Of a DNA stretch of 59,546 nt, positions 6,244 to 58,869 are shown in pieces. The DNA is from an uncultured bacterium (lineage in GTDB: Bacteria; Patescibacteriota; Minisyncoccia; Phycocordibacterales; Phycocordibacteraceae). Made by a program: the position numbers and the translations under genes. Numbering within the stretch: position 1 is the first letter of the stretch; every line of letters starts with the position of its first letter. The DNA lies in contig CAMTYL010000004.1 of NCBI GenBank assembly GCA_947085985.1, forward strand, positions 1 through 59,546. The letters are read 5' to 3'. The notes under the pieces are model-generated. The model did no database searches and was not told the origin of the DNA. It saw nothing but the letters and a program-made list of their open reading frames with translations.

Positions 6244-6594
6244 TCAGGCTTTATCCGAATAGAAGAAAGCTGCCCCAGCGATGATGATCGCTTTGAGCAT
6301 ATCGCCCAACTGCATCTCATCGCCTGCTAAAAAGAACCTCAGATGGACGAGGAACGCGAAGACCAACATCATCACTCCCAACCAGAACGCCGCTTGCTTG
6401 GCGTGTTTGTTCAGGATGATGGCGGCGGATGCGGCGATATGGGCGGCGCCGGTCAGATAGACCCATATCGCTCCACCGGGTAGAAAGGATGGAATAGCCC
6501 CAGCCATGACATCGGCCATCATGAAATGCATCAGACCGAATACTGCGAATGGTAACGCGAAGATATACTTCGCCTGTTTGGTGATTATATCCAT
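6244..6594 (-). CDS. small integral membrane protein, DoxX-like
   Basis: 116 aa with four hydrophobic helices; weak resemblance to the DoxX family. Confidence 0.45.
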   Translation of the reverse strand: MDIITKQAKYIFALPFAVFGLMHFMMADVMAGAIPSFLPGGAIWVYLTGAAHIAASAAIILNKHAKQAAFWLGVMMLVFAFLVHLRFFLAGDEMQLGDMLKAIIIAGAAFFYSDKA

Positions 6595-6704
6595 TGCAAC
6601 TGACTCCTAAGATTATGTTTACAATGCGGTTGCCTGTCTGAAATGACAACGCCCCGCTTCCCAAATGTAGGGAAAAGGGGCGTTGAATTTCAACCTTCAC
6701 TCAG

Positions 6705-16823: not shown

Positions 16824-17115
16824 TGGTTGCGGGGCCCAGAATCGAACTGGGGTCTGGAGGTTATGCTTACCACTACAATTTTCATTGCCCCTTGCGGGTT
16901 TGCGGTCTGGACTATGCCTTCACCCCAAAGGGGTGCCTACCGTCTAGTCTCTACACCTTCCGATTCTCTTTCGAAAAAAGGCTTGGCTCGGCATTGCCTT
17001 TCATTCTCGCGAATGTGAGGGTTTCACCGAATTTGGCAGGTAATCTTACACAGAATTGCTCCTATGCACGCCCGAATTGTTCAAGCCTCCCGAGGTACCT
17101 CTCCTCTACCCCGCT
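16824..17115 (-). tRNA. tRNA (anticodon CAU, initiator-like features) interrupted by a group I intron; exons 17115-17084 and 16865-16824
   Basis: 5' exon AGCGGGG-TA-GAGG-AGAGGTA-CCTC-G-GGAGG-CT. 3' exon CATAA-CCTCC-AGAC-CCCAG-TTCGATT-CTGGG-CCCCGCA-A-CCA. The spliced product is a 74-nt cloverleaf with loop CUCAUAA. It has A11:U24 and an unpaired 1:72 position (A/A), both initiator-like. Confidence 0.8.
16866..17083 (-). ncRNA. group I intron (IC3-like, about 218 nt, no ORF) in the anticodon loop
   Basis: Begins right after a U (GGAGGCU|) and ends in G (..GGUAAG|CAUAA). Contains core blocks I recall from the Azoarcus/cyanobacterial tRNA introns: CAAAUUCGGUGAAACC, GGCAAUGCCGAGCCAAGC, GAAGGUGUAGAGACUAGACGG. 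Confidence 0.75.
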
Positions 17116-40512: not shown

Positions 40513-40586
40513 GCGTCCGTAGCTCAGTTGGTTAGAGCTCGGAGCTTATACCTCCGCGGTCCCTGGTTCGAGTCCAGGCGGACGCA
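40513..40586 (+). tRNA. tRNA-Ile (anticodon UAU)
   Basis: Acceptor GCGTCCG/CGGACGC, D arm GCTC..GAGC, anticodon arm CGGAG-CTTATAC-CTCCG, T arm CCTGG-TTCGAGT-CCAGG. Confidence 0.88.
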
Positions 40587-40613
40587 CCCCAATAGCTTCT
40601 AGTGCCCGAACGA

Positions 40614-42720: not shown

Positions 42721-43170
42721 ATGGCATCTCTGATAGAGAACAAGAAAGCACGCCTTCGCTTTGAGGTACTGACTACCTATCAAGCGGGGCTTGAACTTCT
42801 GGGAACAGAGGTGAAATCAGTGCGCACCAAGCTTGGGAGCCTGGACGGCTCGCGCGTGATTGTGCGTGGTGGCGAGGCATACATTGTGGGCATGACTATT
42901 CCCCCGTTCCAGGTAGCAAACGCTCACAAGGGGTACGACCCAGAGCGCACGCGCCGATTGCTTCTAAAACGCTCGGAAATTGCTGAACTGCTGGACGCCG
43001 AGGCAAAGAAGGGATTGACAATAGTGCCACTTGAGGTGTATAATAATGGAAGATACCTGAAGGCAAGCGTTGCAATAGTGCGCGGCAAGAACAAGGCAGA
43101 CAAGCGCGAGGATATGAAACGCGCGGATGCCAAGAAAGAAGCTGCGCAACTGTTAAAACGTTCTGTATAA
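42721..43170 (+). CDS. smpB: SsrA-binding protein SmpB
   Basis: 149 aa. NKKARLRFEVL...YQAGLELLGTEVKS...GYDPERTRRLLL; basic C-terminal tail. Confidence 0.93.
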   Translation: MASLIENKKARLRFEVLTTYQAGLELLGTEVKSVRTKLGSLDGSRVIVRGGEAYIVGMTIPPFQVANAHKGYDPERTRRLLLKRSEIAELLDAEAKKGLTIVPLEVYNNGRYLKASVAIVRGKNKADKREDMKRADAKKEAAQLLKRSV

Positions 43171-43550: not shown

Positions 43551-43958
43551 GGGGGTGACCGGCTTTGACGGTCTTGTACTTTGAGAGACGTGCGACGCGG
43601 TGGAAGTATGCTGACCACCTAAAAACGTATGCAACTAAACTTGCCAAGAATTCTCTTGCAAGCGTAAAGTCTCCTTACTTCGGTAAGTCGGATTTTGCGT
43701 TCGCTTACGCGTAAAAGCTTCGCGCTTTCGCCTGAGCGACATCTTATCTATCCCGGGTTTCGTAGCGGGTAGGTAGGGTGGAATCTTCTACGGAATCGGT
43801 ATCTAGGGCCTCCCTGCCCCAGGCTTAAAAGATGGGATTGGGTGCGAGTGGTTTCGCTTTTGTTTTTACACTCACACCGACACTTCAATAGAAGCTACGC
43901 GTCGTAGACTCGCTCTTAAAGCAAGATTCGGACCGGAGTTCAACTCTCCGCACCTCCA
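43551..43958 (+). ncRNA. ssrA: tmRNA (SsrA)
   Basis: 5' GGGGGUGACCGGCUUUGACGG pairs with 3' CACCUCC-A, including the G3:U70 alanine identity pair. T arm CGGAG-UUCAACU-CUCCG. The internal tag frame ends ...GKSDFAFAYA-UAA (stop at 43712-43714). The gene sits next to smpB. The resume codon is not determined. Confidence 0.85.
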
Positions 43959-45590
43959 CATGGTTTCATGATTAGGCACGAAAGTGCCTTTTTGTGTATA
44001 TTCTTCCTGGTTTTCTAGAGGTTCTAACCAAACACCAAGAGAGCTTGCTTCAAGTAGAACCTGTACCGGTTTTTCCGTATTCATAGTGAGTATTCCCTGG
44101 TCGAGAACATGCTCATCACCTAGAGCAGCAATAATGGCTCTTCGCTCCAATACTCCGCCTTTAGCAAACTCCTCACTGGCTCGTTCAGCAAACGTCATGA
44201 GTCGTTCAGCGTCATCTATCCAGGTCTTGAATCGTTGGTCTACTGACTCAATTTCAACTTTTAATCTTCGTTCCTCTGCTTCAAGCGTTGCTCTTCGTTC
44301 CTTATATTCATCACCCTCAATCTCGCTAGCCAGTCTCATCTCAAAGAGCGTTGTTAGCTGCTGCTGTGTGGCCTTGAGTGCCCGTTCCTGCTTGTAGAGG
44401 ATAGAATCCTTATCATTGGATTCCCTTTCATATTCAGTACGGAGTTCAGCCATAGCCCACTCGTGGAATCGAGCGTCTATCTGAATTGAGGAGAGGAAAT
44501 CAGCGAACACTACTTCTAATTGCTTTTCGGTTATAGACTTCTGCTTACAATCACTCTTTATCTTCCCTGTGCAACGATAATAGGAGTATTCGTGGTAATT
44601 CCCATTCATCTGGGTCTTAGTCTTCTTTTCGCAGGTTATCCTTGCGCCACATGCACCACAGCGCATAAGTCCGGTATACGCGTGGACATGAGTGGTGCTT
44701 CTTGGCTTTCCTTTCTTTCCTAGCAGTCTTTGCACCTCATCAAATTGAGCTCGCGTAATTAAAGGCGTGTGTGTGCCTTGGTAAGTGATGATTTCGACGT
44801 CCTTATCTCCCCTCCTCACAGACCAAGTAAATTCGCCGTAGTAAAAGGAGTTGTTGAGAATGTTATAGAAGCCGTGTATGGATAGCGGCCTCCCGTTCGG
44901 ATTCCTGACTGTTTTACGCGCCCTCATGCCCCACTCCTTTACTGACAGCATATAGACCTGAAACGGCGTGTACTTGCGTGAAAGCAGAGTATCGAAAATC
45001 TTCTTTATTAGTACGGCATTGTGTTCGTCTATTTCGCAGACCTCTGGCTTACCTTTCTCCCTGAATTTGGTGTTCTTATAACCAATCGGAGCAAGGCACG
45101 GACGGAAGCCTCGCCGAAGCGACTCCATCTGTCCACGCTTTATATGCTTCTTGAGGTCGCGTGAGTACTGCGTTGAGGAACTCATTTCGACAGACCACAT
45201 GATTGTGTGGTCATCGGGGTAGAGATCTCTGTCGGTAGCCTTTATATTCTTGATGATTTCTTTCTGGAGAAAGTACTTAATCTCCCCTTCGTCAATTGAG
45301 TTGCGTGAGAGACGGTCAATTTTGAAACATAGGATTGCATTCGCATTCCCTTCCTCGATGTACCTCATCATTGCCGTAAACTCAGGTCTTTGCCGAGGCT
45401 CGCTTGCAGATACCGTCTCAGTAAACTCTTTAACGACCTTTAACCCGTACTTTGAAGCTAGCTCGTGGACTTCATTAAGCTGCGAAAGGATAGAAGGTAC
45501 GCCAACATCCTCCTCGGTCCTATTGGCCTTAATCGAGCGTCTCGCATAGATAACATATTTAAGCCCCTTATCTCTATCCTCCCTGTACAT
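43872..45590 (-). CDS. large serine recombinase (integrase)
   Basis: Resolvase catalytic domain (YVIYARRS ... FKIDRLSRN), recombinase domain, zinc ribbon (CGACGARITC ... YYRCTGKIKSDC) and coiled-coil. Start set to ATG 45590 (the track start at 45635 is TTG). The last ~30 codons overlap ssrA. Confidence 0.88.
   Translation of the reverse strand: MYREDRDKGLKYVIYARRSIKANRTEEDVGVPSILSQLNEVHELASKYGLKVVKEFTETVSASEPRQRPEFTAMMRYIEEGNANAILCFKIDRLSRNSIDEGEIKYFLQKEIIKNIKATDRDLYPDDHTIMWSVEMSSSTQYSRDLKKHIKRGQMESLRRGFRPCLAPIGYKNTKFREKGKPEVCEIDEHNAVLIKKIFDTLLSRKYTPFQVYMLSVKEWGMRARKTVRNPNGRPLSIHGFYNILNNSFYYGEFTWSVRRGDKDVEIITYQGTHTPLITRAQFDEVQRLLGKKGKPRSTTHVHAYTGLMRCGACGARITCEKKTKTQMNGNYHEYSYYRCTGKIKSDCKQKSITEKQLEVVFADFLSSIQIDARFHEWAMAELRTEYERESNDKDSILYKQERALKATQQQLTTLFEMRLASEIEGDEYKERRATLEAEERRLKVEIESVDQRFKTWIDDAERLMTFAERASEEFAKGGVLERRAIIAALGDEHVLDQGILTMNTEKPVQVLLEASSLGVWLEPLENQEEYTQKGTFVPNHETMWRCGELNSGPNLALRASLRRVASIEVSV
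43974..43993 (+). terminator. rho-independent terminator of ssrA (lies inside the recombinase ORF on the other strand)
   Basis: aggcac-gaaa-gtgcct followed by TTTTT, 16 nt after the tmRNA discriminator base. Confidence 0.7.
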
Positions 45591-45777
45591 ATGATTTTGA
45601 TGGCCAAAGCTGAGCGTAGGTCTGTCTGAATTCAAGCAATTCGTTTGCGTCCATCTTTTCGAGAGGCGTTGTGCAAATCATGATGAGCGTCTGCACCAAC
45701 TCCTCCCGCGACATGGACTCAATCTGATGAATCATGTCCGCGACTACATAGTCTCTAAGTTCCTCGATGCTATTCAT
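45574..45777 (-). CDS. small hypothetical protein (island)
   Basis: 67-aa ORF overlapping neighbours by a few nt, in an operon-like array upstream of the recombinase. Confidence 0.4.
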   Translation of the reverse strand: MNSIEELRDYVVADMIHQIESMSREELVQTLIMICTTPLEKMDANELLEFRQTYAQLWPSKSYVQGG

Positions 45778-47837: not shown

Positions 47838-48590
47838 CTAACCTTTTTTCTTGAGTAAAGTCTTTTTCTTCAAAAGATTTATGGGGTTGCTTATCGCGGC
47901 ATAATCTTTGAGGAGTTGTTCCAAGACGAGAGATACTTCGCTCAGTTCTTTCACGCCACGCGGACTCGAATCAACAAAAGTCCTGACCCAACCTGCTTTA
48001 CCTTTTTCGAGAAAGGCCTTCTTAAAGTTCTGGCTTAGTTCTTCATTTGACCAAACAAGTAGAACCTTGCCTTTAGTTCCGCTATTAGTGTGCACCCGCC
48101 GTACATCGGTTGACGCGATTGAGTTATCAGGAAACCAAACCTTCTTGCCTTTGGCTTTTACAATAAAAATAAGAACGGGATGCGTCTTTACCGTTCCTGA
48201 AAGAATCCGCATTAAGTCTGTGCGAGTTTTAACGGAGAGATAATCAACTCGATATCCTATCTTTTCAGCAGACTCTCTCAGACGTTTTGCCTTATCGGAG
48301 TATTCCTCTATCGCGGCAATTGTCATGAAGCTACGACGACGCACATCTTCGTAATCGCCACCGAGCCTCCTCATACCCTTTAGCTCTCCTTTATTCCAGA
48401 GCCTAATGAATTCTTCAACGTTCTTTCTATAGATTACGTATCGCTTACTTCGACCTTCGCCTCGATACTTGGGTTGAAAGATGTCGCTATGCATATCCAC
48501 CTGCTTTCTCACGGAAGCGATATTCTTCCAATGAAGCAAGCCCGAGTCGGCAAGCTCGTTAAGTGTGAAGAAATCCTTGTCGGCAGCCAT
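47838..48590 (-). CDS. excisionase-like HTH N-terminal domain protein with unknown C-terminal domain
   Basis: N-terminus FFTLNELADSG...GEGRSKRYVIYRKNVEEFIRLWNKGELKG is paralogous to both halves of ORF 58321-58869 and fits the MerR/Xis-type HTH_17 pattern. Confidence 0.5.
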   Translation of the reverse strand: MAADKDFFTLNELADSGLLHWKNIASVRKQVDMHSDIFQPKYRGEGRSKRYVIYRKNVEEFIRLWNKGELKGMRRLGGDYEDVRRRSFMTIAAIEEYSDKAKRLRESAEKIGYRVDYLSVKTRTDLMRILSGTVKTHPVLIFIVKAKGKKVWFPDNSIASTDVRRVHTNSGTKGKVLLVWSNEELSQNFKKAFLEKGKAGWVRTFVDSSPRGVKELSEVSLVLEQLLKDYAAISNPINLLKKKTLLKKKG

Positions 48591-48718
48591 GCCTCCATTC
48601 TATCGCCTCTACCCAGAAAGCACCTCGTTTATGGGTACTTTCATCACGGCCATATGAAACCATACCTATACCCTTAGCTGTGCCTTAGAGAGGAACGCAG
48701 AGCCTCACGCGGGCATTA

Positions 48719-49186
48719 TTATTTGGTTGATGAGGAGTCTTTGGTCTGGATAGTCCCTCCAAGCAGTTCCTTGAAGCTGACATCACATTTCTTCATAGCT
48801 GGATTGAGGGTCATCATCACTTTAAATGGTGAAGTCTGTCCGGCAAGGATGGGGTTGTACTCAGTGAGAGCAGAATCGGAATTTATGAACTGACCATCCG
48901 AGGTGTATGTCGTTCCGACTGCCGTGACATTCTTGAGGGATTCACTACTGATGTTTTTAACCTGACCTGAAATCGTAAAGAAGCCGTACTCCGTGGTGCA
49001 CTTGTAGCTAAGGAGTTCGAGCTGGTCTGCTTTTGCGACTGCGGGAGCACCGGCTGTTGAGGAACCTTTGCCTGATAGAGAATCCGAGATGCTCCCTACT
49101 ATGACAAGGCAGAAAATAATGAGCACGGTAGCGAGAAGAATTTTCCCGATACGGGGTTTTGGTTTTGGAGTGTCTCCGTTATTCAT
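48719..49186 (-). CDS. membrane-anchored extracytoplasmic protein, unknown function
   Basis: 155 aa, N-terminal TM helix (ILLATVLIIFCLVIVGSI) then a beta-rich domain. Confidence 0.5.
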   Translation of the reverse strand: MNNGDTPKPKPRIGKILLATVLIIFCLVIVGSISDSLSGKGSSTAGAPAVAKADQLELLSYKCTTEYGFFTISGQVKNISSESLKNVTAVGTTYTSDGQFINSDSALTEYNPILAGQTSPFKVMMTLNPAMKKCDVSFKELLGGTIQTKDSSSTK

Positions 49187-49193
49187 GGAATTC

Positions 49194-49327
49194 GTGTCTA
49201 GCGATTTTTATAATTCCGGTGGGTAGCACAAAACCCGCCACCAGGAGAGGCCGAAGCCTCCTATAGAAGTTTCCCTCTATAACGCTAGACACGCCCTGAT
49301 GACGGGTTTTCTGGTGTCTAGCGATTT
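49194..49327. repeat. Three copies of a GTGTCTAGCG(ATTT) motif (two direct, one inverted) in a GC-richer intergenic region
   Basis: gtgtctagcgattt at 49194-49207 and 49314-49327; inverted core cgctagacac at 49283-49292; further local hairpins between them. Confidence 0.9.
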
Positions 49328-49404
49328 GCAGCCATGCCAGAGCCGAGGCTACTGGTTTAGGCCGACTGTTATTCAGTTGTCGAACACATAGATATGGTAA
49401 TACC

Positions 49405-50616
49405 TTACAGGGCCTCTGTAAAACTTACGTTACTCGTTATGCTCTTTTTAATAATCTGATTGATTCTAGGATCATACATAAACTCATCAATTCTGTTTGA
49501 AATAATTAGGTCAATTACTTCCTCCATTAATTTAATATCAACCTTAAACCATTCACGAGGTCTATATGATATTCCCTTTCTATCTAGAAGTTCGACATCT
49601 AGCTTTACGGTTGAAAAGAAATCATGAATTTTTTGTTCAAGGCCATGGGTCTGAATATTTAGACATCTGAAAGTGGAAACTACATCAACGTCATCAAATA
49701 AATAAGTTGCTTCGTTTTTCGCATTTTTAATTCTCTCTGAAACAAGTCCTGACGTATAGCCTATCTTGTACAAATCCTTAATGCTTTGGACACTTGCGTT
49801 GCGACTCTTTAAGACATATATGTATCCATTTAACACATCGGACTCCTCTGTCGTGTCTTTTGAGGTGGCGGTATTTTCAATCTTTCCAATTGAATAACCG
49901 TCGAGTTGCATTGCTTTATCCAAAGAACGAAATAGCATTTCCGATTGGGTGCCATTGTCAAATATGCACAAAGTACGGCCATCAAATCGATCTCTTTTCC
50001 CGCTTACATATTCGTATTTATCAACATCACCATTGATACTTTCTAAATAGAGCAGGACACCATTCAAGACATAGAAGCTTCCTTCCCTCAGGTCTGCTGA
50101 GTCGTATTTTGTTAACCTTCTCTTTTTTGACTCTAATTCCTCGTGCAGAACATTAAACATTTCTTTATACCGAGAAAATTCTTTGTTAACCTTACGCCTT
50201 GAGAGGAAGTCGGGCTTGATTCTGTCACTGGGCCTTACATGTCTCAATTTAAAAATATCTGAGTCTGCAGTTTTACTAAGCAAACCTAGCGGATCATTCG
50301 AAATGATATCTTCTACTGTCACTTCCTTTACTTCACCACCCTTGAGCAGACCATTAAAGTCATATTTCATTAGTTCCCTGACTTTTTTGGGATTTTTTCT
50401 GATTGCATGAAGTCGGGAGGCAAGTTTGAATTCAATAATATTTGAGATATCCGATTGAGGTTCTCTTTTGTGTTCTTCAAAATACTCTTGTATTTCTTCA
50501 AATGAAGATACCAAGATGCTGTCCTCATGCGATACAGGTCGTTTAGTAGACGTATTCTTGAGCAATCCGAGAGGGTCATTCTTTAGAAGTTCAAGAACGT
50601 CAGACCTCTTGCTCAT
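49405..50616 (-). CDS. T5orf172 / GIY-YIG-like nuclease-domain protein
   Basis: C-terminal domain GYIYVLKS...LYKIGYTSG...R...E..IH..F...REWF fits the T5orf172 (MUG113, GIY-YIG-like) pattern. The N-terminus has two NDPLGLL repeats. ATGA overlap with the helicase stop. Confidence 0.7.
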   Translation of the reverse strand: MSKRSDVLELLKNDPLGLLKNTSTKRPVSHEDSILVSSFEEIQEYFEEHKREPQSDISNIIEFKLASRLHAIRKNPKKVRELMKYDFNGLLKGGEVKEVTVEDIISNDPLGLLSKTADSDIFKLRHVRPSDRIKPDFLSRRKVNKEFSRYKEMFNVLHEELESKKRRLTKYDSADLREGSFYVLNGVLLYLESINGDVDKYEYVSGKRDRFDGRTLCIFDNGTQSEMLFRSLDKAMQLDGYSIGKIENTATSKDTTEESDVLNGYIYVLKSRNASVQSIKDLYKIGYTSGLVSERIKNAKNEATYLFDDVDVVSTFRCLNIQTHGLEQKIHDFFSTVKLDVELLDRKGISYRPREWFKVDIKLMEEVIDLIISNRIDEFMYDPRINQIIKKSITSNVSFTEAL

Positions 50617-52556
50617 ATGTTTTGCTCACTATTAATTTGTCGTAGATAGACCAGTGCCTCTGCCATTCTCCTCTCAAGTGGGTCCAGGGCATCAAAACTA
50701 GGTTCCTTACCTTTAATGAGGAAGAAATCCTGTATCTTAGGCCACAAGATAATAGCTTCATCATCTGTCATCTGAATTTTAAGCGCCTGAATACACTGCT
50801 GTACTGCCTTAAAGACCCTTGGACTCAATTGTTTAGACATAACCTCGAAAGCATTCTGAAACGGATTTATCGAGTAAATCAAATCCATGTTCAGTTCAAG
50901 AACATTCACTAGCCTGTTGGCAAAGACTATAAATTTATCGTTACCCTGCTCGACAATATTACTTGCTCTAACCACGGAGCTTACTGCAACGTAATCACCC
51001 AACTCTTTAAGTTCATCTTTGCTTAAGTCCGGGTAAATCTCTTGGATTACTTTCGGAATGAGAGCTCTGTTCAATACGTCTGGGTCTACCACCCCAGGGA
51101 ATGAACTCTGTATCTCAGGTGATTGAAGAATCTTTGCCTTCAAATCAATAAGGTCGTTATCAATGATTTCTCTTAAACGTGCAGAGCTTGGTTCTTTGAA
51201 CCCTTTTATGAAAATATCAACACCATTCGTATTGCCTTGGTCAGATTCCTTAGATCTAAAACTAAATTTAGGTGCCATTACTTCCTCCATTAGCAATGAT
51301 GCCGCTATTGCTTTAAGCATGTTATTTACACTGTCAGCAATATCCTCACTTTCTGCGTCTGGTTCAGCAATAAGGTTCGTGAATTGAGCATGGCTTTTAT
51401 TCTCGCTATCACGTGTGCAACGTCCAATGATTTGAATAATCTCGGTTAACGAACCACGGTACCCAATTGTCAGAGTGTTCTCACAAAATGGCCAGTCGAA
51501 ACCTTCCTTAGCCATTCCAAGAGCAATTACCATATCGATGTCATCTACCGTCTTCACATTGCGGAGATATGCCATAACCTTATCCCTCTCTAAGGGATTA
51601 TCGTTAACCAAGTCCGCTATTTTGATAGTCCTTCCGTCCGCACTTTTTAAAGAGATTATTCCGTGCTCATCAGTAGAAACATACGTGCCAATATGGTCCA
51701 AAATCGAGTCTACTTCGAGCATTTTCTCTTTAGTCGATTCAGACGCATTCACGCTAGGAATATGAATTATTGTCTTCTTTTTGAGGTCAATTATCTTAGG
51801 AATTGCGTCTAAGTATTTTCCTTTATAGAAATGGAAACCAATCCCTAGCGATTTAAGGTACTCGTATCCATTAAGCTGCTCGTAATAGTTGTACGTTACT
51901 TTTGTAAATTTCTGCTCATCCTTTGGTGACAAAACAGCAACTGAGTCACCGCGAAAATATGACCCAGTCATCGCCAGGATGTTAGCGTTGGTATTCTGCA
52001 TGATATTGCTAAGCAACTGCCCCAACTTACTTTCTATGTCCGTTGAGACATGGTGAAACTCATCAATTGCAACAAGGCAGTTGTTGAATGCCTCGAAGCC
52101 AACTTGATCGAAGGCAAATCTCAAGGTTGAATGAGTGCAGAGAATAATTTTTGCATCTGACTCCATGAACCTTTTAAAGGCAACGGTCTTCCTCTCTTCC
52201 CCGCCAGGTGAGCAAAGATCATATTGAGGATCGATTACCCAATCCGAGTGAAATCCGTCCTGGGATAAGTTTGTGGACGCAAAAGATTTGGCAATTGACC
52301 TTTCAGGGACTGCAACGATAATTTTTTTAACTAAATTGTGTTTGAGTTTCTCAAGGGCAACATACATTAGGGCTCTAGACTTGCCTGAACCTGGAGGTGC
52401 TTTTAAAAGCAAATACTTGGAATCAAATTTTTGGTATACCCTTCTTTGCATTTCACGCATCCCTTTACTGTCAGCAAGTATGCTGCTTCCATCGTGTTCG
52501 TATTCGACATTAATTAGATTTTCCATTTTGGGTAGCGGTATTTTCGTATAAGCCAA
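50613..52556 (-). CDS. SF2 DEAD/DEAH-box helicase (ResIII-like)
   Basis: Walker A KAPPGSGKS, motif II AIDEFHH, motif III MTGSYFRGD, motif VI QIIGRCTRD; about 200-aa helical C-terminal extension. Confidence 0.8.
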   Translation of the reverse strand: MAYTKIPLPKMENLINVEYEHDGSSILADSKGMREMQRRVYQKFDSKYLLLKAPPGSGKSRALMYVALEKLKHNLVKKIIVAVPERSIAKSFASTNLSQDGFHSDWVIDPQYDLCSPGGEERKTVAFKRFMESDAKIILCTHSTLRFAFDQVGFEAFNNCLVAIDEFHHVSTDIESKLGQLLSNIMQNTNANILAMTGSYFRGDSVAVLSPKDEQKFTKVTYNYYEQLNGYEYLKSLGIGFHFYKGKYLDAIPKIIDLKKKTIIHIPSVNASESTKEKMLEVDSILDHIGTYVSTDEHGIISLKSADGRTIKIADLVNDNPLERDKVMAYLRNVKTVDDIDMVIALGMAKEGFDWPFCENTLTIGYRGSLTEIIQIIGRCTRDSENKSHAQFTNLIAEPDAESEDIADSVNNMLKAIAASLLMEEVMAPKFSFRSKESDQGNTNGVDIFIKGFKEPSSARLREIIDNDLIDLKAKILQSPEIQSSFPGVVDPDVLNRALIPKVIQEIYPDLSKDELKELGDYVAVSSVVRASNIVEQGNDKFIVFANRLVNVLELNMDLIYSINPFQNAFEVMSKQLSPRVFKAVQQCIQALKIQMTDDEAIILWPKIQDFFLIKGKEPSFDALDPLERRMAEALVYLRQINSEQNI

Positions 52557-55098
52557 ACAGGTGCTTTATCCTCTCCATGTCAGATACGAAGGCTTCATCT
52601 TTATAACATGAATCTATCTCTTTATCAAGACTATCATGCAAGATTTTAAGTCTTTCAGGGAGAGCACTGTAAAGACTTCCTAGGCTTATGTCGCTGAAAT
52701 TTTCCCTCTCATTTATTATGTCACCAACTAACGAGGTTATGTGATGCTTCTTTTCTGAAGTTATTTCTGGAAATGGAAATGTGTTATACCCGAGTTGGCT
52801 TGAGTATCGAAGCCTTGTTTCTAGATTTCCGCACACGGTACGAATCCAGACCATATGCATCTGTGATGACACTAGTCCGAAAATCCAAGGTTCGCAATCG
52901 TATACAGCAAAAGCAAGGTTCGACACGATTGTGTCGCTACCTACGAAGCCGATTGGAATGTACTTCCTCTTTTCAGACGAGACTGATGGCACTACCAGGG
53001 TCTGAGAGTGTGTTTCTCTGAACTCTCTAAATTGATACGGACGTTCCGCAAGTCTACGTGCACCAGCATCTCTTTTAGATAACCTGAATTCCCTTACTCT
53101 ATCAACCCTTTCTTTTACTGCCTGAATTGAAGTGGCTTCTTCTACCTCATCTGAGTCTATCCAAAGACACCACCGCTCAATACTGTTTATAAATTCGTCC
53201 GAGCCGACTAGTTTTTTCAGAAACTTAGAAGCTTTAGGCGAATCTGTCGTAAGCTTGACCATTTCTTCCTTACTAAGAAGAAGATTTTGGTCATCGTATG
53301 GCATGTTGCCTTTCTGCATGACAGGCAATTCTTTAGATACAGGTTTCCTCTCCTCTTTAACTATTGTTCTCGTTGAATTAATTAGATATGGCCCAATACT
53401 ATCGGTGTATATGACTTTATTATCTGCATACAAATATTTAGTCTCTCGTTGGTTGTTTGAGTCAGTTAGCGCGACAATGATTACCGTCACGCCCGTAGAA
53501 GGTGTTGCGTCACCCCTCCATTTAAATGAACGATAAGCGAAAGAAATGTCACAATTGAGAGCATAAATTTTACTCCACACAAACGAAACCTGTGTACCCT
53601 GACAAATTGAATTTGTAATCACCAGGGCACATTCAGACTTCGACCCCTTAATATACTCAGCCGATTTGTATAGCCAGCTAGCACTATAGTCTGTGTCTCC
53701 CAAACGCTCAGAATCAAACACCGATTGCATTTTCTTCTTCTCTTGAGATGAAATCTTTTTCGCACCTTTAAATTCAGGACTTCCAATGATATAGACATTG
53801 TCATTGTTTGGACAGGCATCCTTCCAATTTGAAAGAAGCTGGTCCCCCTTTTTAATATTTACGTTGTTGTAGGTACTAAGTAAGTCACCTTCTTCAAAGA
53901 ATTCATTGCTGTGCAAATACTGCAAATACGAAACCCAGAGCGTTAGGTGAGAGAATTTAAATGACAAATCGTTATCTACCAAGCCGATAAAGTTATTAAG
54001 ATTAACTTCCCTGGAAGGATTTTGCCCTTTTAGCTTATTGATAAGTGTCAGCAGATCAACAATGCTTGTAAATGAAGATGACAAGAAACAGCCAGGGCCA
54101 TTTGTTGGGTCAAAGAAAACCTTGTTAAGCAGTTCCTCCTTTATTTTTTGAAGTCTCTCTGCATCATCTTTATTTATAGAAATTAAATCTTCGTACTTAT
54201 TTATAAATAGCGGATTCAATAATTTAGCTATATTGTTGTGAGAAATAAAACGCCCGTAAATACCTGGATTGCTGTCCTTCTGCGTCAGCTTATAGGTAAG
54301 AGTACCCAGTACTTCTGGGTCAATATTAATTAACTCATAACATAAGATCTTTGCGGAGAGTTCAAAACTGATTAGATTTATATGCGGTAGTGTATTTTTG
54401 GTGTGCCCAAATCTTCCAAAGAAGGGCAACTTGGCAAAGGATGCATCATTCGTAATATTTTCTAATGTTGCATCAAAAATACCTTTGATTTGGAAATTGT
54501 AGTCTAATTCTTGTGAAGCAAATATCCATTGAAAGTATTTCTCTATCTCTTTGTTCTTGGTGATTGATTTACTGAAACTTAAGTAAACAAGCGACAATGC
54601 GTAGTCGGTAATCTCCTCTCCCAAAGAATCATTTTTCTTATCGAGACTTAACTGATTAAATAAACTTGCCATTAACTCCACGAAATCCAGAGTCGTTGTC
54701 AGGTCTCTTTCATCTGTCTTGCCGTATATCAACGGATTAAAAAAGCTTACATGTTTGTAAACTTCATTTGGACTAAATTCAATTAATTCATCCGTAACTA
54801 AATCCTTGCACATAACAACGTTGGAATTTAATAAAACAACAATTCTCGGAGCCTCTGTTAAACCAGCTTCAACAGAAGCAAAATCATCTTTACTCACTAT
54901 GCTTTTATCGTAGATAAAAACGGCTCTTTTGTAGATATAGATTGGTTTTAAAAAGGACTGTTTCTTGGCATTCTCAATTGATCGTTTAATTGTCGAATCT
55001 GAGATTTGTAGTGCCGAAAGTAGCTCCTCAATATATTGGGAAACTTCAATGAAACGAATTCCTTGTAATGAGTTAGTTATTTCGTTAACAGTCCTCAT
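52510..55098 (-). CDS. MmeI-family (type IIL R-M enzyme-like) protein with non-canonical catalytic motifs
   Basis: Colinear by eye with MmeI as I recall it: RIVVLLNSNVVMCKDL.. / SAM motif I FFDPTNGPGCFL / motif IV position YIIGSPEFKG / ITNSICQGTQVSFVW / FINSIERWCLWID / RKYIPIGFV...FGLVSSQMHMVWIR...RLRYSSQLGYNTFPFP. Confidence 0.75.
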   Translation of the reverse strand: MRTVNEITNSLQGIRFIEVSQYIEELLSALQISDSTIKRSIENAKKQSFLKPIYIYKRAVFIYDKSIVSKDDFASVEAGLTEAPRIVVLLNSNVVMCKDLVTDELIEFSPNEVYKHVSFFNPLIYGKTDERDLTTTLDFVELMASLFNQLSLDKKNDSLGEEITDYALSLVYLSFSKSITKNKEIEKYFQWIFASQELDYNFQIKGIFDATLENITNDASFAKLPFFGRFGHTKNTLPHINLISFELSAKILCYELINIDPEVLGTLTYKLTQKDSNPGIYGRFISHNNIAKLLNPLFINKYEDLISINKDDAERLQKIKEELLNKVFFDPTNGPGCFLSSSFTSIVDLLTLINKLKGQNPSREVNLNNFIGLVDNDLSFKFSHLTLWVSYLQYLHSNEFFEEGDLLSTYNNVNIKKGDQLLSNWKDACPNNDNVYIIGSPEFKGAKKISSQEKKKMQSVFDSERLGDTDYSASWLYKSAEYIKGSKSECALVITNSICQGTQVSFVWSKIYALNCDISFAYRSFKWRGDATPSTGVTVIIVALTDSNNQRETKYLYADNKVIYTDSIGPYLINSTRTIVKEERKPVSKELPVMQKGNMPYDDQNLLLSKEEMVKLTTDSPKASKFLKKLVGSDEFINSIERWCLWIDSDEVEEATSIQAVKERVDRVREFRLSKRDAGARRLAERPYQFREFRETHSQTLVVPSVSSEKRKYIPIGFVGSDTIVSNLAFAVYDCEPWIFGLVSSQMHMVWIRTVCGNLETRLRYSSQLGYNTFPFPEITSEKKHHITSLVGDIINERENFSDISLGSLYSALPERLKILHDSLDKEIDSCYKDEAFVSDMERIKHLFGLYENTATQNGKSN

Positions 55099-55997
55099 AC
55101 TGTATCGAAATTCTTATAAATAAGTCTTGCGACGTATTCTGCCATCTTTACCGGAACAGCATTTCCTATCAACTGTTCTACCTGTGACCTTGTGCCTTCA
55201 AATATAAATTCCTTTGGGAAAGTCTGAATGTAACTACGCTCCTTACTTGTTAGTGCACGTACTTTACTTAGATCTGTTGTTTTATCTGCACTATGCACAG
55301 CGTACGTTTTTGGAATGGGTCTATTGACCCCTCTTATTGTTGAACTTGGTTCATCAATTGAGAATATTGCTCTGCGACTGTAGCTCCTTGGGTGCATATA
55401 GTAAAACTCCGTTTTCAGGCTTTTGCCGAAGTAGTCTCTAACTGTCATATGCTTCTTGGATAGATTCTTATGCAAAATATCTTCCAAGAAATTGTCCTCA
55501 CTACCCAATTTCCCAATCACAAAAAAGCGTTTGCGGGATTGAGGTACGCCCATAAGACTAGCATCAAAGACACCTTTAGTGATTCCATACCCTGCTTTTT
55601 TAAAATTACCTATCGCTTTGGCTAAAACGGGAGATTTTTCGATGTTGTAAACATTCTCCATTACAAACCACTCAGGACGGAGGCTTGAAACTATATTGCT
55701 AAATACCAATGTCAGGTTAGCTCTTTTCCCTTTAAAGTTCCTACCTCCAGCAATTGAGAAATCTTGGCATGGAGGTCCCCCAATAATAATGTCTGGCTTG
55801 AATTTACTAAGTTCTTCAATCACAGATGGATCAAATAGATCCTTTTGAAAAACAGGGTGGTCGAAGTTTTTCTTATAGACTTCGACAGCGGGAGCCCAAT
55901 TGTCATATGCTGACACCACATCAAAACCAGCATTTTGGAAGCCTAGTGACATTCCTCCACAGCCAGCAAACAAATCTACTAATTTAATTTTTTTCAT
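55095..55997 (-). CDS. DNA (cytosine-5)-methyltransferase, copy 2
   Basis: Motif I DLFAGCGGMSLGF, motif IV GGPPCQDFS, motif VI ENV, motif VIII QSRKRFFVIG, motif X GNAVPV. ATGA overlap with the downstream gene. Confidence 0.9.
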   Translation of the reverse strand: MKKIKLVDLFAGCGGMSLGFQNAGFDVVSAYDNWAPAVEVYKKNFDHPVFQKDLFDPSVIEELSKFKPDIIIGGPPCQDFSIAGGRNFKGKRANLTLVFSNIVSSLRPEWFVMENVYNIEKSPVLAKAIGNFKKAGYGITKGVFDASLMGVPQSRKRFFVIGKLGSEDNFLEDILHKNLSKKHMTVRDYFGKSLKTEFYYMHPRSYSRRAIFSIDEPSSTIRGVNRPIPKTYAVHSADKTTDLSKVRALTSKERSYIQTFPKEFIFEGTRSQVEQLIGNAVPVKMAEYVARLIYKNFDTV

Positions 55998-56913
55998 GCC
56001 TTATATATTCCATTAGTGCTGCTGAAATATATTCAGCCAACTTCACAGGAACTGCGTTCCCAATAAGCTGGTTAAGGGTAGTCTTAGGTCCTTCAAAAAC
56101 GAAATCTTCTGGGAAGGTTTGAATTAAGCTTCGTTCCTTATAGGTAAGTGTTCGAACAGACGGATTCAGTGGTATCGGGTCAGTAGGATGACCAGGATAG
56201 CCACTTGGAACCGGCCTATCGACTCCTCGAATAGTCATAGAGGGCTCATGGATACTGAAAATACCTCTGCGACTGTAGGATCGTGGCACTCTGAAATAAT
56301 ACTCAAAGCCTAATGAGTTACCAAAGTAGTCAAAAATCGTCGTTTGCTTTTCACTCTGACCTTTGACCAACCTATCTAATAGAAAGTCATCCTTGCCACC
56401 AAGCTCACCTATAACTACGAAACGCTTTCTTATTTGAGGTGCTCCGCAACGACTAGCATCTAAGACTAAGTGTGTGAGTCCGTATCCTAATTTACTAAAC
56501 TTCTTCATAATTTTTGGGAAGACTTCACTCTTCTGAATTCGCGGGACATTCTCCATTACAAAATACTTCGGCTTTATATCTGCAATAATTTTAGAGAACG
56601 AAATAGTCAATTCAGCTCTTCCTAGATTTTCATCACGATGTCCGGCACTAGAGAAATCTTGGCATGGAGGTCCCCCAATAATAATGTCTGGTTTGAAGGA
56701 TTTAATATCTTCCAAGTCTGAAGTGTCACCCAAATCCTTTTTGAAAATCGGATGCTTAAAGTTCTTCTTGTAAACCTCTATAGCCGGGTCCCAATTATCA
56801 AAAGCGGCAACAACATTAAAGCCTGAGTTCTCAAATCCTAGTGACAGACCTCCACAACCAGAGAAAAGATCCACGACAGTTGGAGCTACTTTTTTTGATT
56901 TGTTAGTTTTCAT
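55984..56913 (-). CDS. DNA (cytosine-5)-methyltransferase, copy 1
   Basis: Motif I DLFSGCGGLSLGF, motif IV GGPPCQDFS, motif VI ENV, motif VIII QIRKRFVVIG, motif X GNAVPV. Paralog of copy 2. Confidence 0.9.
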   Translation of the reverse strand: MKTNKSKKVAPTVVDLFSGCGGLSLGFENSGFNVVAAFDNWDPAIEVYKKNFKHPIFKKDLGDTSDLEDIKSFKPDIIIGGPPCQDFSSAGHRDENLGRAELTISFSKIIADIKPKYFVMENVPRIQKSEVFPKIMKKFSKLGYGLTHLVLDASRCGAPQIRKRFVVIGELGGKDDFLLDRLVKGQSEKQTTIFDYFGNSLGFEYYFRVPRSYSRRGIFSIHEPSMTIRGVDRPVPSGYPGHPTDPIPLNPSVRTLTYKERSLIQTFPEDFVFEGPKTTLNQLIGNAVPVKLAEYISAALMEYIRHEKN

Positions 56914-57093: not shown

Positions 57094-57180
57094 GTACAGA
57101 ATTGTCCTGTTTTGTACTATAGAGTATAGGGAAGTACAGATATATACCTAAATATACCGACATGTCCTGTATTGTCATAT
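57094..57180 (-). promoter_or_regulatory. Putative promoter/operator region of the HTH-MTase-MmeI-like-helicase operon
   Basis: Dense short direct repeats directly upstream of the HTH gene: tgtcctgt(t/a)ttgt at 57103-57117 and 57163-57177, gtacaga at 57094-57100 and 57134-57140, atatacc twice (57142-57158). Confidence 0.45.
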
Positions 57181-57280: not shown

Positions 57281-58210
57281 CTATGCACTCTTAAGGTATT
57301 TTGGAAAAACCGAACGAAACTTCTCTACGACACCAAGAAGCCATCCGAAGTAGGACTCCCAGTTCTCTTGGTTATTGAAGTCACCCTCATAAGAAACCTT
57401 GATACGGCTTGCTTTCTTGCCTGGCAACTCCATCCATTCCAGCCTCTCACTCAGTGCTGCTTCTATCTCGTCCTTGTGTGTAAGGATTTCAGCATAAAGT
57501 TCTTTGTTGTCGGGGATGTGTAATTCAACTCCAAACGTATTGTCTTTGGAATTGATAGTCATGGAGATATACGCCTCGCTGGTGCCAATACTCATATTGT
57601 TCCAGTGCTGAGGATTGCTCTTATGAAAGCGCAGGTTGCTATTGTTCTTCTTAGCGTATTCCTTGAGTGCGTTCCAGAAAGCCAATTGTTTTAGCTTAGT
57701 CTCGGTAAGTTCCCCACTTCCAACGGATTCCTTAACGGCTTTTGCCCAATCGTTTGGCTTTGAGATTATTTCGAACTTCGGAGCGAAGTCAGAATCCCCA
57801 ATCTGCCACAACTCAATCTTCAACAAATAAAACTCAATGTTTTCGTCAGTATGCTCATTAAGCCAGTCAATTGCACGACGATGCTCCTCTCTTACATCTT
57901 TCACCACCCAAATTATGGCCTCAGCGTCATATCCAGACGCGTAAGTAATTACCTTTCCAAGATGGTCATGGTTGGTAATCTCCAACTGATTCTCGATGAT
58001 AATCTTCTTTCCAGTGCCGTCTTCCTCAGCAAGGATATCGACGTTGAAATTCCCCACCGAGGCTTCGGTTTGAATTAGTTTTATCTCAAGACCAATCTCA
58101 TCTCCCAAAAGAGACAGATTCTCCTCTTGGGCAAGCCACTGTGTAAAATCATGGGCTTCGTGCCGCCAACCTTCGCGCAGCTCGACTCTTTTAAGCTTAC
58201 CTAGACTCAT
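57281..58210 (-). CDS. PD-(D/E)XK (NucS-like) N-terminal domain + DUF4268-like protein
   Basis: GNFNVDILAED...KIIIENQLEITNHDHLGKVITYASG...IIWVV.....HRRAIDWLN fits the family usually annotated DUF4268. Start set to ATG 58210 (the track start is TTG). Confidence 0.6.
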   Translation of the reverse strand: MSLGKLKRVELREGWRHEAHDFTQWLAQEENLSLLGDEIGLEIKLIQTEASVGNFNVDILAEEDGTGKKIIIENQLEITNHDHLGKVITYASGYDAEAIIWVVKDVREEHRRAIDWLNEHTDENIEFYLLKIELWQIGDSDFAPKFEIISKPNDWAKAVKESVGSGELTETKLKQLAFWNALKEYAKKNNSNLRFHKSNPQHWNNMSIGTSEAYISMTINSKDNTFGVELHIPDNKELYAEILTHKDEIEAALSERLEWMELPGKKASRIKVSYEGDFNNQENWESYFGWLLGVVEKFRSVFPKYLKSA

Positions 58211-58320
58211 TACCAAGAATAATAGCTCCCGACGGGAGAAACTCAAAAGTCCGAGATTCTCTTAACAGCTTAGACCCTCCTAGGGTTCCTGGGTCTCAAC
58301 TTTTTCGCTTCCTTATTAAA

Positions 58321-58869
58321 CTAAGTCTTAGATTTTAAGTAGTCTCGCAAATCTGTTTCTTTTATCCAATATCTATTGGCTACCGGCTCCCCATCTACTG
58401 ATGATATGAGTCTTACCTTGAGACCTTTCAACTTTCCTGCTTTGAGGTGTGCTCTGAAAGTGTGATAGGTACTAATTCCAGGAAGCATCTTTGCATTGCA
58501 TACTTGCCTAAGGTTGTACCAACCCTTCGTGTTCTTAGTTAAAGACAATTCTTCTTTTCGAGCCTTTCTCTGTTTCGGAATTGGCTTCATCTTTTTGGAC
58601 ACTATTCTGCCCTTAAGTTCATTCCTTTCGAAACGATCAATCAATTCCTGTAGATTCTTTCCTTCAACGAGATATCGCTTCCCTGACGCCTTCCCCCTAA
58701 CCTTTGGCTTTAAGATTCTAGAGAACTTGCGATGCGACATGTATTTGAGAATGGTTTTATAGGAAGTTACCCAATATATGAGATTCTCCTCACGAATCTC
58801 TCGTGCACTATACATTCGTGCGCTCTCAACAGCTCTGTTCCGGACTTTTGCCCTCATTACAAGAAGCAT
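58321..58869 (-). CDS. tandem excisionase-like HTH domain protein
   Basis: Two internal repeats (YSAREIREE...GKRYLVEGKNLQELIDRFERNELKG and WYNLRQV...ANRYWIKETDLRDYLKS) related to the N-terminus of ORF 47838-48590. Confidence 0.5.
   Translation of the reverse strand: MLLVMRAKVRNRAVESARMYSAREIREENLIYWVTSYKTILKYMSHRKFSRILKPKVRGKASGKRYLVEGKNLQELIDRFERNELKGRIVSKKMKPIPKQRKARKEELSLTKNTKGWYNLRQVCNAKMLPGISTYHTFRAHLKAGKLKGLKVRLISSVDGEPVANRYWIKETDLRDYLKSKT

Follow-up and report, generated by a model that had tools for sequence, protein, structure and literature searches.

A Dcm-linked clade of YeeA-type MmeI homologues with decayed adenine-methylase motifs, probably acting as non-methylating readers in a mobile restriction cassette

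What is the role of an MmeI-like protein that displays neither the nuclease motif nor the methylase motif of its family? The question is raised by a 59,546-nucleotide (nt) stretch of DNA from an uncultured Patescibacteriota bacterium (assembly GCA_947085985.1, contig CAMTYL010000004.1), which as a whole is called the window here. An uninterrupted open reading frame (ORF) at 52510-55098 on the reverse strand encodes a protein of 862 aa. A preliminary description, made from the sequence, had recognized this protein as an MmeI homologue with SPEF in place of the catalytic motif IV NPPF and with no PD-ExK nuclease motif. The gene is one of five at 49405-56913 on the reverse strand that overlap by 4-17 nt. 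We conclude that these five genes are probably a mobile Type I-like restriction-modification system derived from the YeeABC (DnmA) type, in which 5-methylcytosine (m5C) replaces N6-methyladenine (m6A) as the protection and the MmeI-like protein reads DNA without methylating it. The parent YeeABC type is already known, but its clade of YeeA-type proteins that are linked to cytosine-5 methylase (Dcm) genes, decayed in their motifs and frozen in specificity looks new.

The 862-aa protein and its parts are as follows.
52510-55098, reverse strand: MmeI homologue of the YeeA/DnmA kind, its adenine-methylase motifs decayed; proposed to read DNA without methylating it (Pfam, PADLOC, alignment to the MmeI structure 5HR4, AlphaFold, clade motif statistics)
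54709-55098, reverse strand: N-terminal domain without PD-ExK, residues 1-130, presumed dock for the helicase and nuclease (no MmeI_N match; AlphaFold pLDDT 87)
53377-54273, reverse strand: gamma-methylase-like domain, residues 276-574 (alignment to MmeI and the residues absolutely conserved in the MmeI family, PMC4833311)
54082-54114, reverse strand: motif I, FDPTNGPGCFL (alignment to MmeI)
53977-53979, reverse strand: motif II, Val374 where MmeI has Glu (GIE) (alignment to MmeI)
53770-53781, reverse strand: motif IV, S440-P441-E442-F443 where MmeI has NPPF (alignment to MmeI)
52762-53376, reverse strand: target-recognition domain (TRD), residues 575-779 (alignment to MmeI)

Pfam matches are to MmeI_Mtase (residues 310-557), MmeI_TRD (576-779, E 7e-82) and MmeI_C (782-854, E 1e-12), with no match to MmeI_N or MmeI_hel. 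The PADLOC Type IIG model PDLC03598 covers the protein end to end (E 1e-164), and a search of NCBIfam returned no model. The sole sequence match in the Protein Data Bank (PDB) is MmeI itself, 5HR4 (phmmer, E 1.4e-98; residues 81-853 against 105-901). An AlphaFold model (pLDDT 81.9) compared by Foldseek with 5HR4, the MmeI-DNA crystal structure, gave E 4e-46 and a TM score of 0.78, and the sequence alignment confirms the register. A recognition domain and a C-terminal domain of the MmeI type are thus both present by Pfam, sequence alignment and fold. The end-to-end colinearity with MmeI that had been seen by eye holds for residues 81-853, but the N-terminal region does not align.

The alignment to 5HR4 is of high confidence around motif IV, where it places IIGSPEFKG on ILGNPPFVG, and it also places FFDPTNGPGCFL on FFDPACGCGNFL. 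G439-F443 falls at 53770-53784, motif I (F328-L339) at 54082-54117 and K51-S66 at 54901-54948; the preliminary description had located all three correctly and had read motif IV correctly. Two deviations go beyond the preliminary description: Val374 in motif II, and Arg283 in place of the base-stacking His314 of MmeI (PMC4833311). Phe443 (MmeI F484) and Trp527 (MmeI W570) are retained. Across 341 MmeI-family enzymes, NPPF, His314 and Trp570 show no variation at all (PMC4833311); of these three features only the tryptophan is kept here. The window also departs from the family in the division of labor. In MmeI one polypeptide both cuts and protects without an extra methylase, whereas the operon in the window holds two Dcm genes, a helicase gene and a T5orf172 gene besides.

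The absence of the nuclease motif has a published precedent. In the phmmer alignment the first ~80 residues of the query are unaligned and MmeI residues 1-104 are unmatched. The D...ExK of MmeI (D70...E80-x-K82) is absent; aligned by MAFFT with P0041 (IDLFWPGHILIEMKS), a canonical nuclease of the MmeI type, the protein has I/Y at the D and E positions. A PDB fold search with the N-terminal model found nothing significant, the best match (E 0.025, TM 0.28) being weakly like the anticodon-binding domains of aminoacyl-tRNA synthetases. Morgan et al. 2009 (PMC2731913) divided MmeI homologues into two sets. One bears PD-ExK; the other, of which B. subtilis YeeA is the type, lacks the nuclease motif and diverges from MmeI over the first ~100 residues. 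Since that second set is already defined, the absence of PD-ExK is not unusual; it is an ancestral trait of the known YeeA/DnmA branch and not peculiar to the window protein. The earlier suggestion that loss of both activities would be unusual for the family therefore falls as far as the nuclease is concerned. What is new is that decayed adenine-methylase motifs go together with a Dcm pair and a frozen specificity, a coupling which that description had suspected. Following the proposal of Morgan et al. (PMC2731913), the N-terminal domain is presumed to be a docking domain for the helicase and nuclease.

These two partners are encoded directly after the MmeI-like gene.
50613-52556, reverse strand: YeeB-like superfamily 2 helicase, probable true start at ATG 52526 (Pfam DEAD and ResIII; 53% identity to the helicase of locus L006)
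49405-50616, reverse strand: YeeC-like protein with a C-terminal T5orf172 domain (GIY-YIG superfamily), presumed nuclease (Pfam T5orf172, E 7.7e-14; 4-nt overlap with the helicase gene)

Genes of the YeeA type were described as flanked in every case by genes for a DEAD helicase (YeeB) and for a GIY-YIG-like protein (YeeC), with "no additional DNA methyltransferase genes" beside them; the YeeA-type subunit was proposed to give specificity and modification, and YeeB and YeeC to cleave in trans (PMC2731913). YeeA is now named DnmA and is an m6A methylase for GACGAG, in which the motif IV point mutation Y465A abolishes catalysis but not DNA binding (PMC7261158). DnmA functions in gene regulation in B. 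subtilis. Further literature on YeeABC systems is in Nye 2020, Fernandez 2023 and Piel et al. The window has the YeeABC arrangement: an MmeI homologue with the N-terminal domain type that lacks PD-ExK, followed by the helicase and then the T5orf172 gene, a synteny found in more than 80 loci. The helicase is 53% identical over its full length, from residue 11, to its ortholog in L006, which lies beside a canonical NPPF YeeA-like gene, and the alignment shows Walker A (KAPPGSGKS) and DEFHH. The T5orf172 protein is 37% identical to the L006 counterpart and has the GYIYVL and YKIGYT motifs. Its uncharacterised N-terminal half carries NDPLGLL twice, at residues 12-19 and 107-114, which is also visible in the L006 homologue. 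The window differs from the published type in having additional methylase genes. Moreover, a subunit with SPEF, Val374 and Arg283 would not be expected to protect the host by its own m6A as the NPPY-bearing subunits do.

The additional methylases are two.
55984-56913, reverse strand: cytosine-5 DNA methylase "type 1", 309 aa (Pfam DNA_methylase, E 1.4e-66)
55095-55997, reverse strand: cytosine-5 DNA methylase "type 2", 300 aa (Pfam DNA_methylase, E 1.6e-67; overlaps its neighbors by 14 and 4 nt)

The C5 motifs I (FxGxGG), IV (PCQ), VI (ENV), VIII (QxRxR) and X (GNAVP) are present in both and in their orthologs; in type 1 they read FSGCGG, PPCQ, ENV, QIRKR and GNAVPV, all intact. The two are paralogs with 60% identity. 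Across loci they form two orthologous types in constant order, each with its own type-specific variable regions. We inspected 16 loci of the clade: the window, L001/2, L003/4, the P0024 locus, L008 (Muribaculaceae), L009 (Flavobacterium), L088-L092, and L093-L097, the last being five IMG/VR viral contigs. Dcm genes are joined to the cassette in all 16. They are separate genes directly upstream in 13, of which L094, at a contig end, shows the second Dcm only; in the other three there is one double methylase of ~600 aa, convergent and downstream. The fused Dcm of L091, L095 and L096 consists of an N-terminal half of type 1 and a C-terminal half of type 2. By comparison, none of 81 loci with a GNPP[YF] protein has a Dcm within 10 kb, though nearly all have the helicase and T5orf172 genes. 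In the clade loci those two genes are kept as strictly as the Dcm genes. The clade contradicts the 2009 statement that there are no extra methylases beside YeeA-type homologues (PMC2731913), and our literature search found no description of a Dcm-linked form of the MmeI-like/T5orf172 system. A tblastn search of the PLSDB plasmids gave canonical relatives only, at 33% identity or less, and the cassette had no megablast match in complete E. coli genomes. As a general principle, an asymmetric site requires two non-redundant methylases, one per strand (PMC3874165), and a pair of two distinct types fits such a site.

The SPEF of the window protein is not a chance deviation, because the same form recurs among its relatives. 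A word-indexed search gave 28 homologues at 33-79% identity, each of which has G(S/A)Px(F/Y) and FDPTNGPGCFL. An exhaustive search added ~35 more distant representatives with other forms of motif IV (APKF, TPTF, CPVF, VPTF, NIEY, NWPY, NVDY, NTQY, NPSY, NPEY and SPPM). The clade as a whole is 30-79% identical to the window protein. Among the clade, residue 1 of the motif is S, A, T, C, V or N, and at residue 3, which is hypervariable, E, V, T, I, Q, K, L and R occur. For motif statistics we used 157 full-length relatives, of which 59 were assigned to the clade by their TRD signature and 98 were other relatives. The canonical features are kept as follows.
NPP[FY] in motif IV: clade 3/59; other relatives 97/98
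Acidic residue in motif II: clade 14/59; other relatives 96/98
DPxxGxG in motif I: clade 42/59; other relatives 93/98
His at the His314 position: clade 37/59; other relatives 89/98
All five canonical features: clade 0/59; other relatives 83/98

Canonical YeeABC members have NPPY/F together with the motif II Glu and His314, and they do their own adenine methylation. In the clade the decay differs from lineage to lineage, which is the pattern expected of relaxed selection on catalysis. On these motifs, the 862-aa protein very probably does not methylate adenine. The methylase-like domain nonetheless has a mean pairwise identity of 0.57 in the clade against 0.55 in canonical proteins. Being as conserved as the canonical domain, it must retain some role.

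The alignment of the TRD to MmeI has one gap of one residue, at query E590, upstream of all specificity positions. The base-specifying residues of MmeI are Y642, K645, A723, F737, Y738, E751, T752, N773, A774, L805, E806, R808 and R810 (PMC4833311); their equivalents in the window protein are K596, M599, D677, R691, E692, S705, V706, N727, L728, L759, E760, R762 and R764. The resulting pattern, KMDRESVNLLERR, shows little or no change in any clade member, even where overall identity falls to 30%, while 68 canonical YeeA-like proteins have 62 specificity patterns. The mean pairwise identity of the TRD is 0.70 in the clade, where it is the best-conserved domain, against 0.41 in canonical proteins, where the N-terminal domain alone is lower (0.39). 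In other words, canonical recognition residues vary freely, and the window clade has a single frozen specificity together with an obligatory Dcm pair. According to Loenen et al. (PMC3874165), an accompanying methylase "confines the evolutionary diversification" of specificity, and a frozen TRD fits that statement.

Applying the published MmeI recognition code (PMC4833311) to the aligned residues, in MmeI numbering, gives the following prediction for each position of the site.
Position 1: D723 and a basic R737, G
Position 2: K642 and M645, as in the MmeI Y642K/K645M double mutant, R
Position 3: N773, C
Position 4: L774 and R810, G only
Position 5: V752 and L805, hydrophobic contacts to T, A:T
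Position 6: E806 and R808, C

The site read by the clade is therefore predicted to be 5'-GRCGAC-3', which is asymmetric. In MmeI, the A774L change confers specificity for G, and cutting is blocked when the cytosine paired to G4 is 5-methylated (PMC4833311). The equivalent residue in the window protein is Leu728 (52915-52917), and leucine is near-invariant there in the clade. Because MmeI A774L fails to cut the m5C site, Leu728 is a plausible sensor of m5C.

Counting of the site served as an independent test of the prediction. The hexamers were fixed before counting and compared with a first-order Markov expectation in 12 non-redundant Dcm-linked cassettes, 90 kb in all (49405-56913 of the window, L001, L003, L008, L009, L088-L091, L093, L096 and L097). 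GACGAC occurs once against 19.7 expected and GGCGAC once against 17.6, so that the total for GRCGAC is 2 against 37. Among 2080 hexamers these two rank 4 and 7 for depletion, and they have by far the lowest ratios of observed to expected. One-base variants of the site are near expectation in 34 of 35 cases, the exception being GACGTC (2 against 9.6). At position 5 the C and G variants are thus at their expected frequency and T is ambiguous, GGCGTC standing at 12 against 17.5. In 20 canonical cassettes with other specificities the site occurs 61 times against 33 expected. It is partly depleted in the flanks of the Dcm-linked cassettes (23 against 51) and not depleted in the chromosomal part of the window (51 against 46), and from 48341 to the end of the window there are no sites against 4.4 expected. 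The depletion in the cassettes implies that the system acts on GRCGAC. The C-to-T products of the central CpG (GATGAC, GGTGAC and GGCAAC) are enriched in the 12 cassettes, which hints that the CpG cytosines are the methylated ones. The same cassettes are also low in GATC (258 against 416) and CATG (243 against 368), the kind of avoidance of common restriction and methylation sites expected of mobile DNA.

Locus L056, from a Burkholderiales metagenome-assembled genome (6932-15212), has a canonical NPPY YeeA-like protein with the identical pattern KMDRESVNLLERR and no Dcm, and GRCGAC is not avoided in it (4 against 5.3 expected). It is possibly the ancestral state rather than a counter-example. 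A Schlafen/AlbA_2 gene lies between the methylase and helicase genes in L056 and also in L005 (L005 12832-14286).

The mechanism that we favor is the following. The MmeI-like protein would bind asymmetric 5'-GRCGAC-3' through its MmeI-type recognition domain, a step that two independent computations support, and would no longer transfer a methyl group. Where the site is unmodified, the reader would allow cleavage by the YeeB-like helicase together with the GIY-YIG/T5orf172 nuclease of YeeC type, as in the proposal for the parent system. The two cytosine-5 methylases would protect the host DNA, each probably on one strand and most likely at the central CpG. The m5C would probably be sensed in the major groove, with Leu728 as the candidate sensor. 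Because three proteins must now agree on the site, specificity would be frozen while unused catalytic motifs decay, a step that the comparative data support. Of the roles offered in the preliminary description, that of an inert DNA-recognition module for the helicase and nuclease is thus the most likely, judging from sequence. Guidance of the Dcm enzymes is unlikely, because both have complete C5 motifs and variable regions of their own; we regard them as functional partners instead.

Several points weigh against this scheme. The sub-clade to which the window protein belongs has an invariant motif I (FDPTNGPGCFL) and conserves S-P-x-F/Y, so that these proteins may bind S-adenosylmethionine (SAM) and may even retain some catalysis. 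The clade members that bear NPPY, L090 and L094, may be intermediates and may still methylate. The linkage to Dcm is one ancestral acquisition that was then retained, not many independent events. The depletion of GRCGAC may stem from deamination of m5C rather than from selection against self-cutting on entering a new cell, and the enrichment of the C-to-T products is compatible with either. Finally, the B. subtilis DnmA-YeeB-YeeC system gave neither restriction nor phage defense (PMC7261158), and protection, against some phages, comes only from yeeAB of Vibrio crassostreae (Piel et al.).

A bolder form of the reader model, in which the decayed catalytic pocket is still of use, we regard as possible but somewhat doubtful. 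The decayed pocket might still flip A5 of GRCGAC, might bind SAM and might act as an allosteric licence switch for the helicase and nuclease, with Leu728 reading m5C at the CpG separately. The argument for flipping is that the avoidance scan favors A at position 5 and that Pro441, Phe443 and Trp527 are kept; the argument for SAM is the invariant motif I. If true, a natural pseudoenzyme of the adenine-methylase type would have come to read cytosine methylation, and a three-way dependence would hold its specificity fixed across bacterial phyla.

The invariant motif I could also mean that the protein is still an active amino-methylase, of N4-cytosine (m4C) or of N6-adenine, using an S-P-x-F that resembles the SPP(Y/F) of m4C enzymes, in a system with three methylases. 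Motif IV does keep S, P and F/Y in the 28 closest homologues, and the domain is as conserved as the canonical one. The accepted range of the motif is (D/N/S)PPY (PMC7261158), and gamma-class m4C enzymes exist, although they are rare (PMC3874165). We nevertheless consider this unlikely. Residue 3 of motif IV is hypervariable, and sister lineages have A, T, C or V as residue 1. Val has taken the place of the motif II Glu and Arg that of His314, in a family whose active members absolutely conserve NPPF, His314 and Trp570, and the strictly retained Dcm pair would be redundant.

The whole cassette might be a remnant that has lost its function and is decaying, an idea put forward for B. subtilis dnmA-yeeB-yeeC, with the degenerate motifs reflecting pseudogenization of the methylase. 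This would agree with the inactivity of the B. subtilis system and with the clearly relaxed constraint on the catalytic motifs. We judge it very unlikely, however, considering that the five ORFs are intact and overlapping in 16 loci at about 30-79% identity, on mobile and viral contigs, that the recognition domain is under unusually strong constraint, and that the cassettes are depleted almost 20-fold in the predicted site, implying activity on GRCGAC. We give hardly any credence to the MmeI-like protein being a targeting or regulatory partner of the Dcm enzymes in an epigenetic module, with the helicase and nuclease serving another role: the tight linkage to the Dcm pair and the regulatory function of DnmA in B. 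subtilis recommend it, and it was also suggested in the preliminary description, but both Dcm are complete stand-alone C5-methylases whose type-specific variable regions persist from locus to locus, retention of the helicase and T5orf172 genes is just as strict as that of the Dcm genes, and avoidance of the site within the cassette is unexpected for a purely regulatory mark, though deamination could cause it. A modification-dependent (Type IV-like) system was rejected, as cutting m5C DNA while the co-transcribed Dcm enzymes methylate the host would be suicidal.

The restriction cassette is mobile. In the window it lies in an island of low GC content (about 40% against 51%) that starts at ssrA, directly after smpB (42721-43170), and carries a large serine recombinase gene and a RepO-like gene. 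The tmRNA, at 43551-43961 on the forward strand, is full-length by Rfam (94.5 bits) and was missed by ARAGORN. The recombinase gene, at 43872-45635 on the reverse strand, overlaps the tmRNA 3' end with its own 3' end. This arrangement implies that the island was inserted at ssrA, and it extends past the end of the window. Mobility is concluded from the ssrA island, from a homologous serine recombinase beside the cassette in L001 and from the five cassettes on viral contigs. Promoter and terminator scans gave no excess over shuffle expectation; one weak candidate is listed.
57151-57178, reverse strand: promoter-like candidate upstream of the first Dcm gene, ATGACA-16-TATATT, 10/12 matches (such sites in the region are not above shuffle expectation)

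Other island ORFs, at 47838-49186 and 58321-58869, and the DUF4268 gene were considered as parts of the system and rejected, not being conserved beside the cassette in other loci. The DUF4268 protein (57281-58246, reverse strand), which adjoins the cassette and matches the PADLOC candidate defense family PDC-S11 (E 4e-125), is for the same reason probably a separate defense gene. A LOOT RNA (RF03000, 73 bits) lies at 49246-49363 on the reverse strand, immediately downstream of the T5orf172 gene, and L001 has another copy (89.9 bits) upstream of the cassette, at 6504-6617 on the forward strand, in a related serine-recombinase element. This RNA seems to belong to the mobile element and not to the restriction cassette. 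Elsewhere in the window, there is a group I intron match (RF00028, 53.3 bits against a gathering score of 50) at 16885-17102 on the reverse strand in an intergenic-looking chromosomal stretch, and a tRNA-Ile with anticodon TAT, an isoacceptor uncommon in bacteria, at 40513-40588 on the forward strand directly after a recG-like gene.

The proposed system can be set beside several known ones. With MmeI and the Type IIL enzymes (5HR4) it shares the helical spacer, the gamma-methylase fold, the recognition domain and the C-terminal bundle, and the recognition code transfers, in that the predicted site is the one purged from the cassettes. It differs in lacking both the PD-ExK nuclease and NPPF, so that cleavage is presumably in trans by the ATP-dependent helicase-nuclease pair, and in the proposed m5C protection as against the single-strand m6A of MmeI. 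Type IIG enzymes with accompanying methylases (Eco57I with M.Eco57I; BpuSI with M1 and M2, one of them m5C) likewise combine a gamma-methylase/TRD reader with separate protective methylases, but they have an active methylase domain of their own and a fused PD-ExK nuclease, where the window has decayed motifs, a separate nuclease and motor, and two m5C methylases. LlaJI and BsuMI have two m5C methylases for an asymmetric site and NTP-dependent, McrBC-like restriction subunits. The likeness lies in a C5 methylase pair, presumably one for each strand of an asymmetric CG-containing site, alongside an NTPase-driven restriction complex. Unlike LlaJI and BsuMI, the cassette has no Pfam or PADLOC match to an McrB-like GTPase or McrC-like nuclease, and its reader is an MmeI-type pseudo-methylase. 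The logic is likely that of Type I restriction-modification, in which a core of methylase type senses both the site and whether it is methylated and governs a separate superfamily 2 motor-nuclease, though the window has neither HsdS nor HsdR, its GIY-YIG nuclease is on its own polypeptide, and its reader is itself non-methylating. PADLOC matches to DISARM class 2 and Druantia type II are at the level of methylases only (DrmMI, DrmMII and DruM), and the helicase has no match to DrmA, DrmB or DruE.

The YeeABC family is widespread and mechanistically uncharacterised. Here recognition and modification are on different proteins, so that each could be deleted separately, giving a cleaner experimental handle, and GRCGAC is a concrete prediction from the MmeI code backed by the avoidance of the site. 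A non-methylating, m5C-sensitive reader of the MmeI type with an engineerable code could be of practical use. For the family itself, the clade appears to record a swap of protective chemistry, from m6A made by the reader to m5C made by two dedicated enzymes, with the MmeI-type reader unchanged. The comparative data suggest what follows from such a swap: catalytic motifs decay along many different routes, and MmeI-type specificity, which normally evolves fast, becomes frozen.

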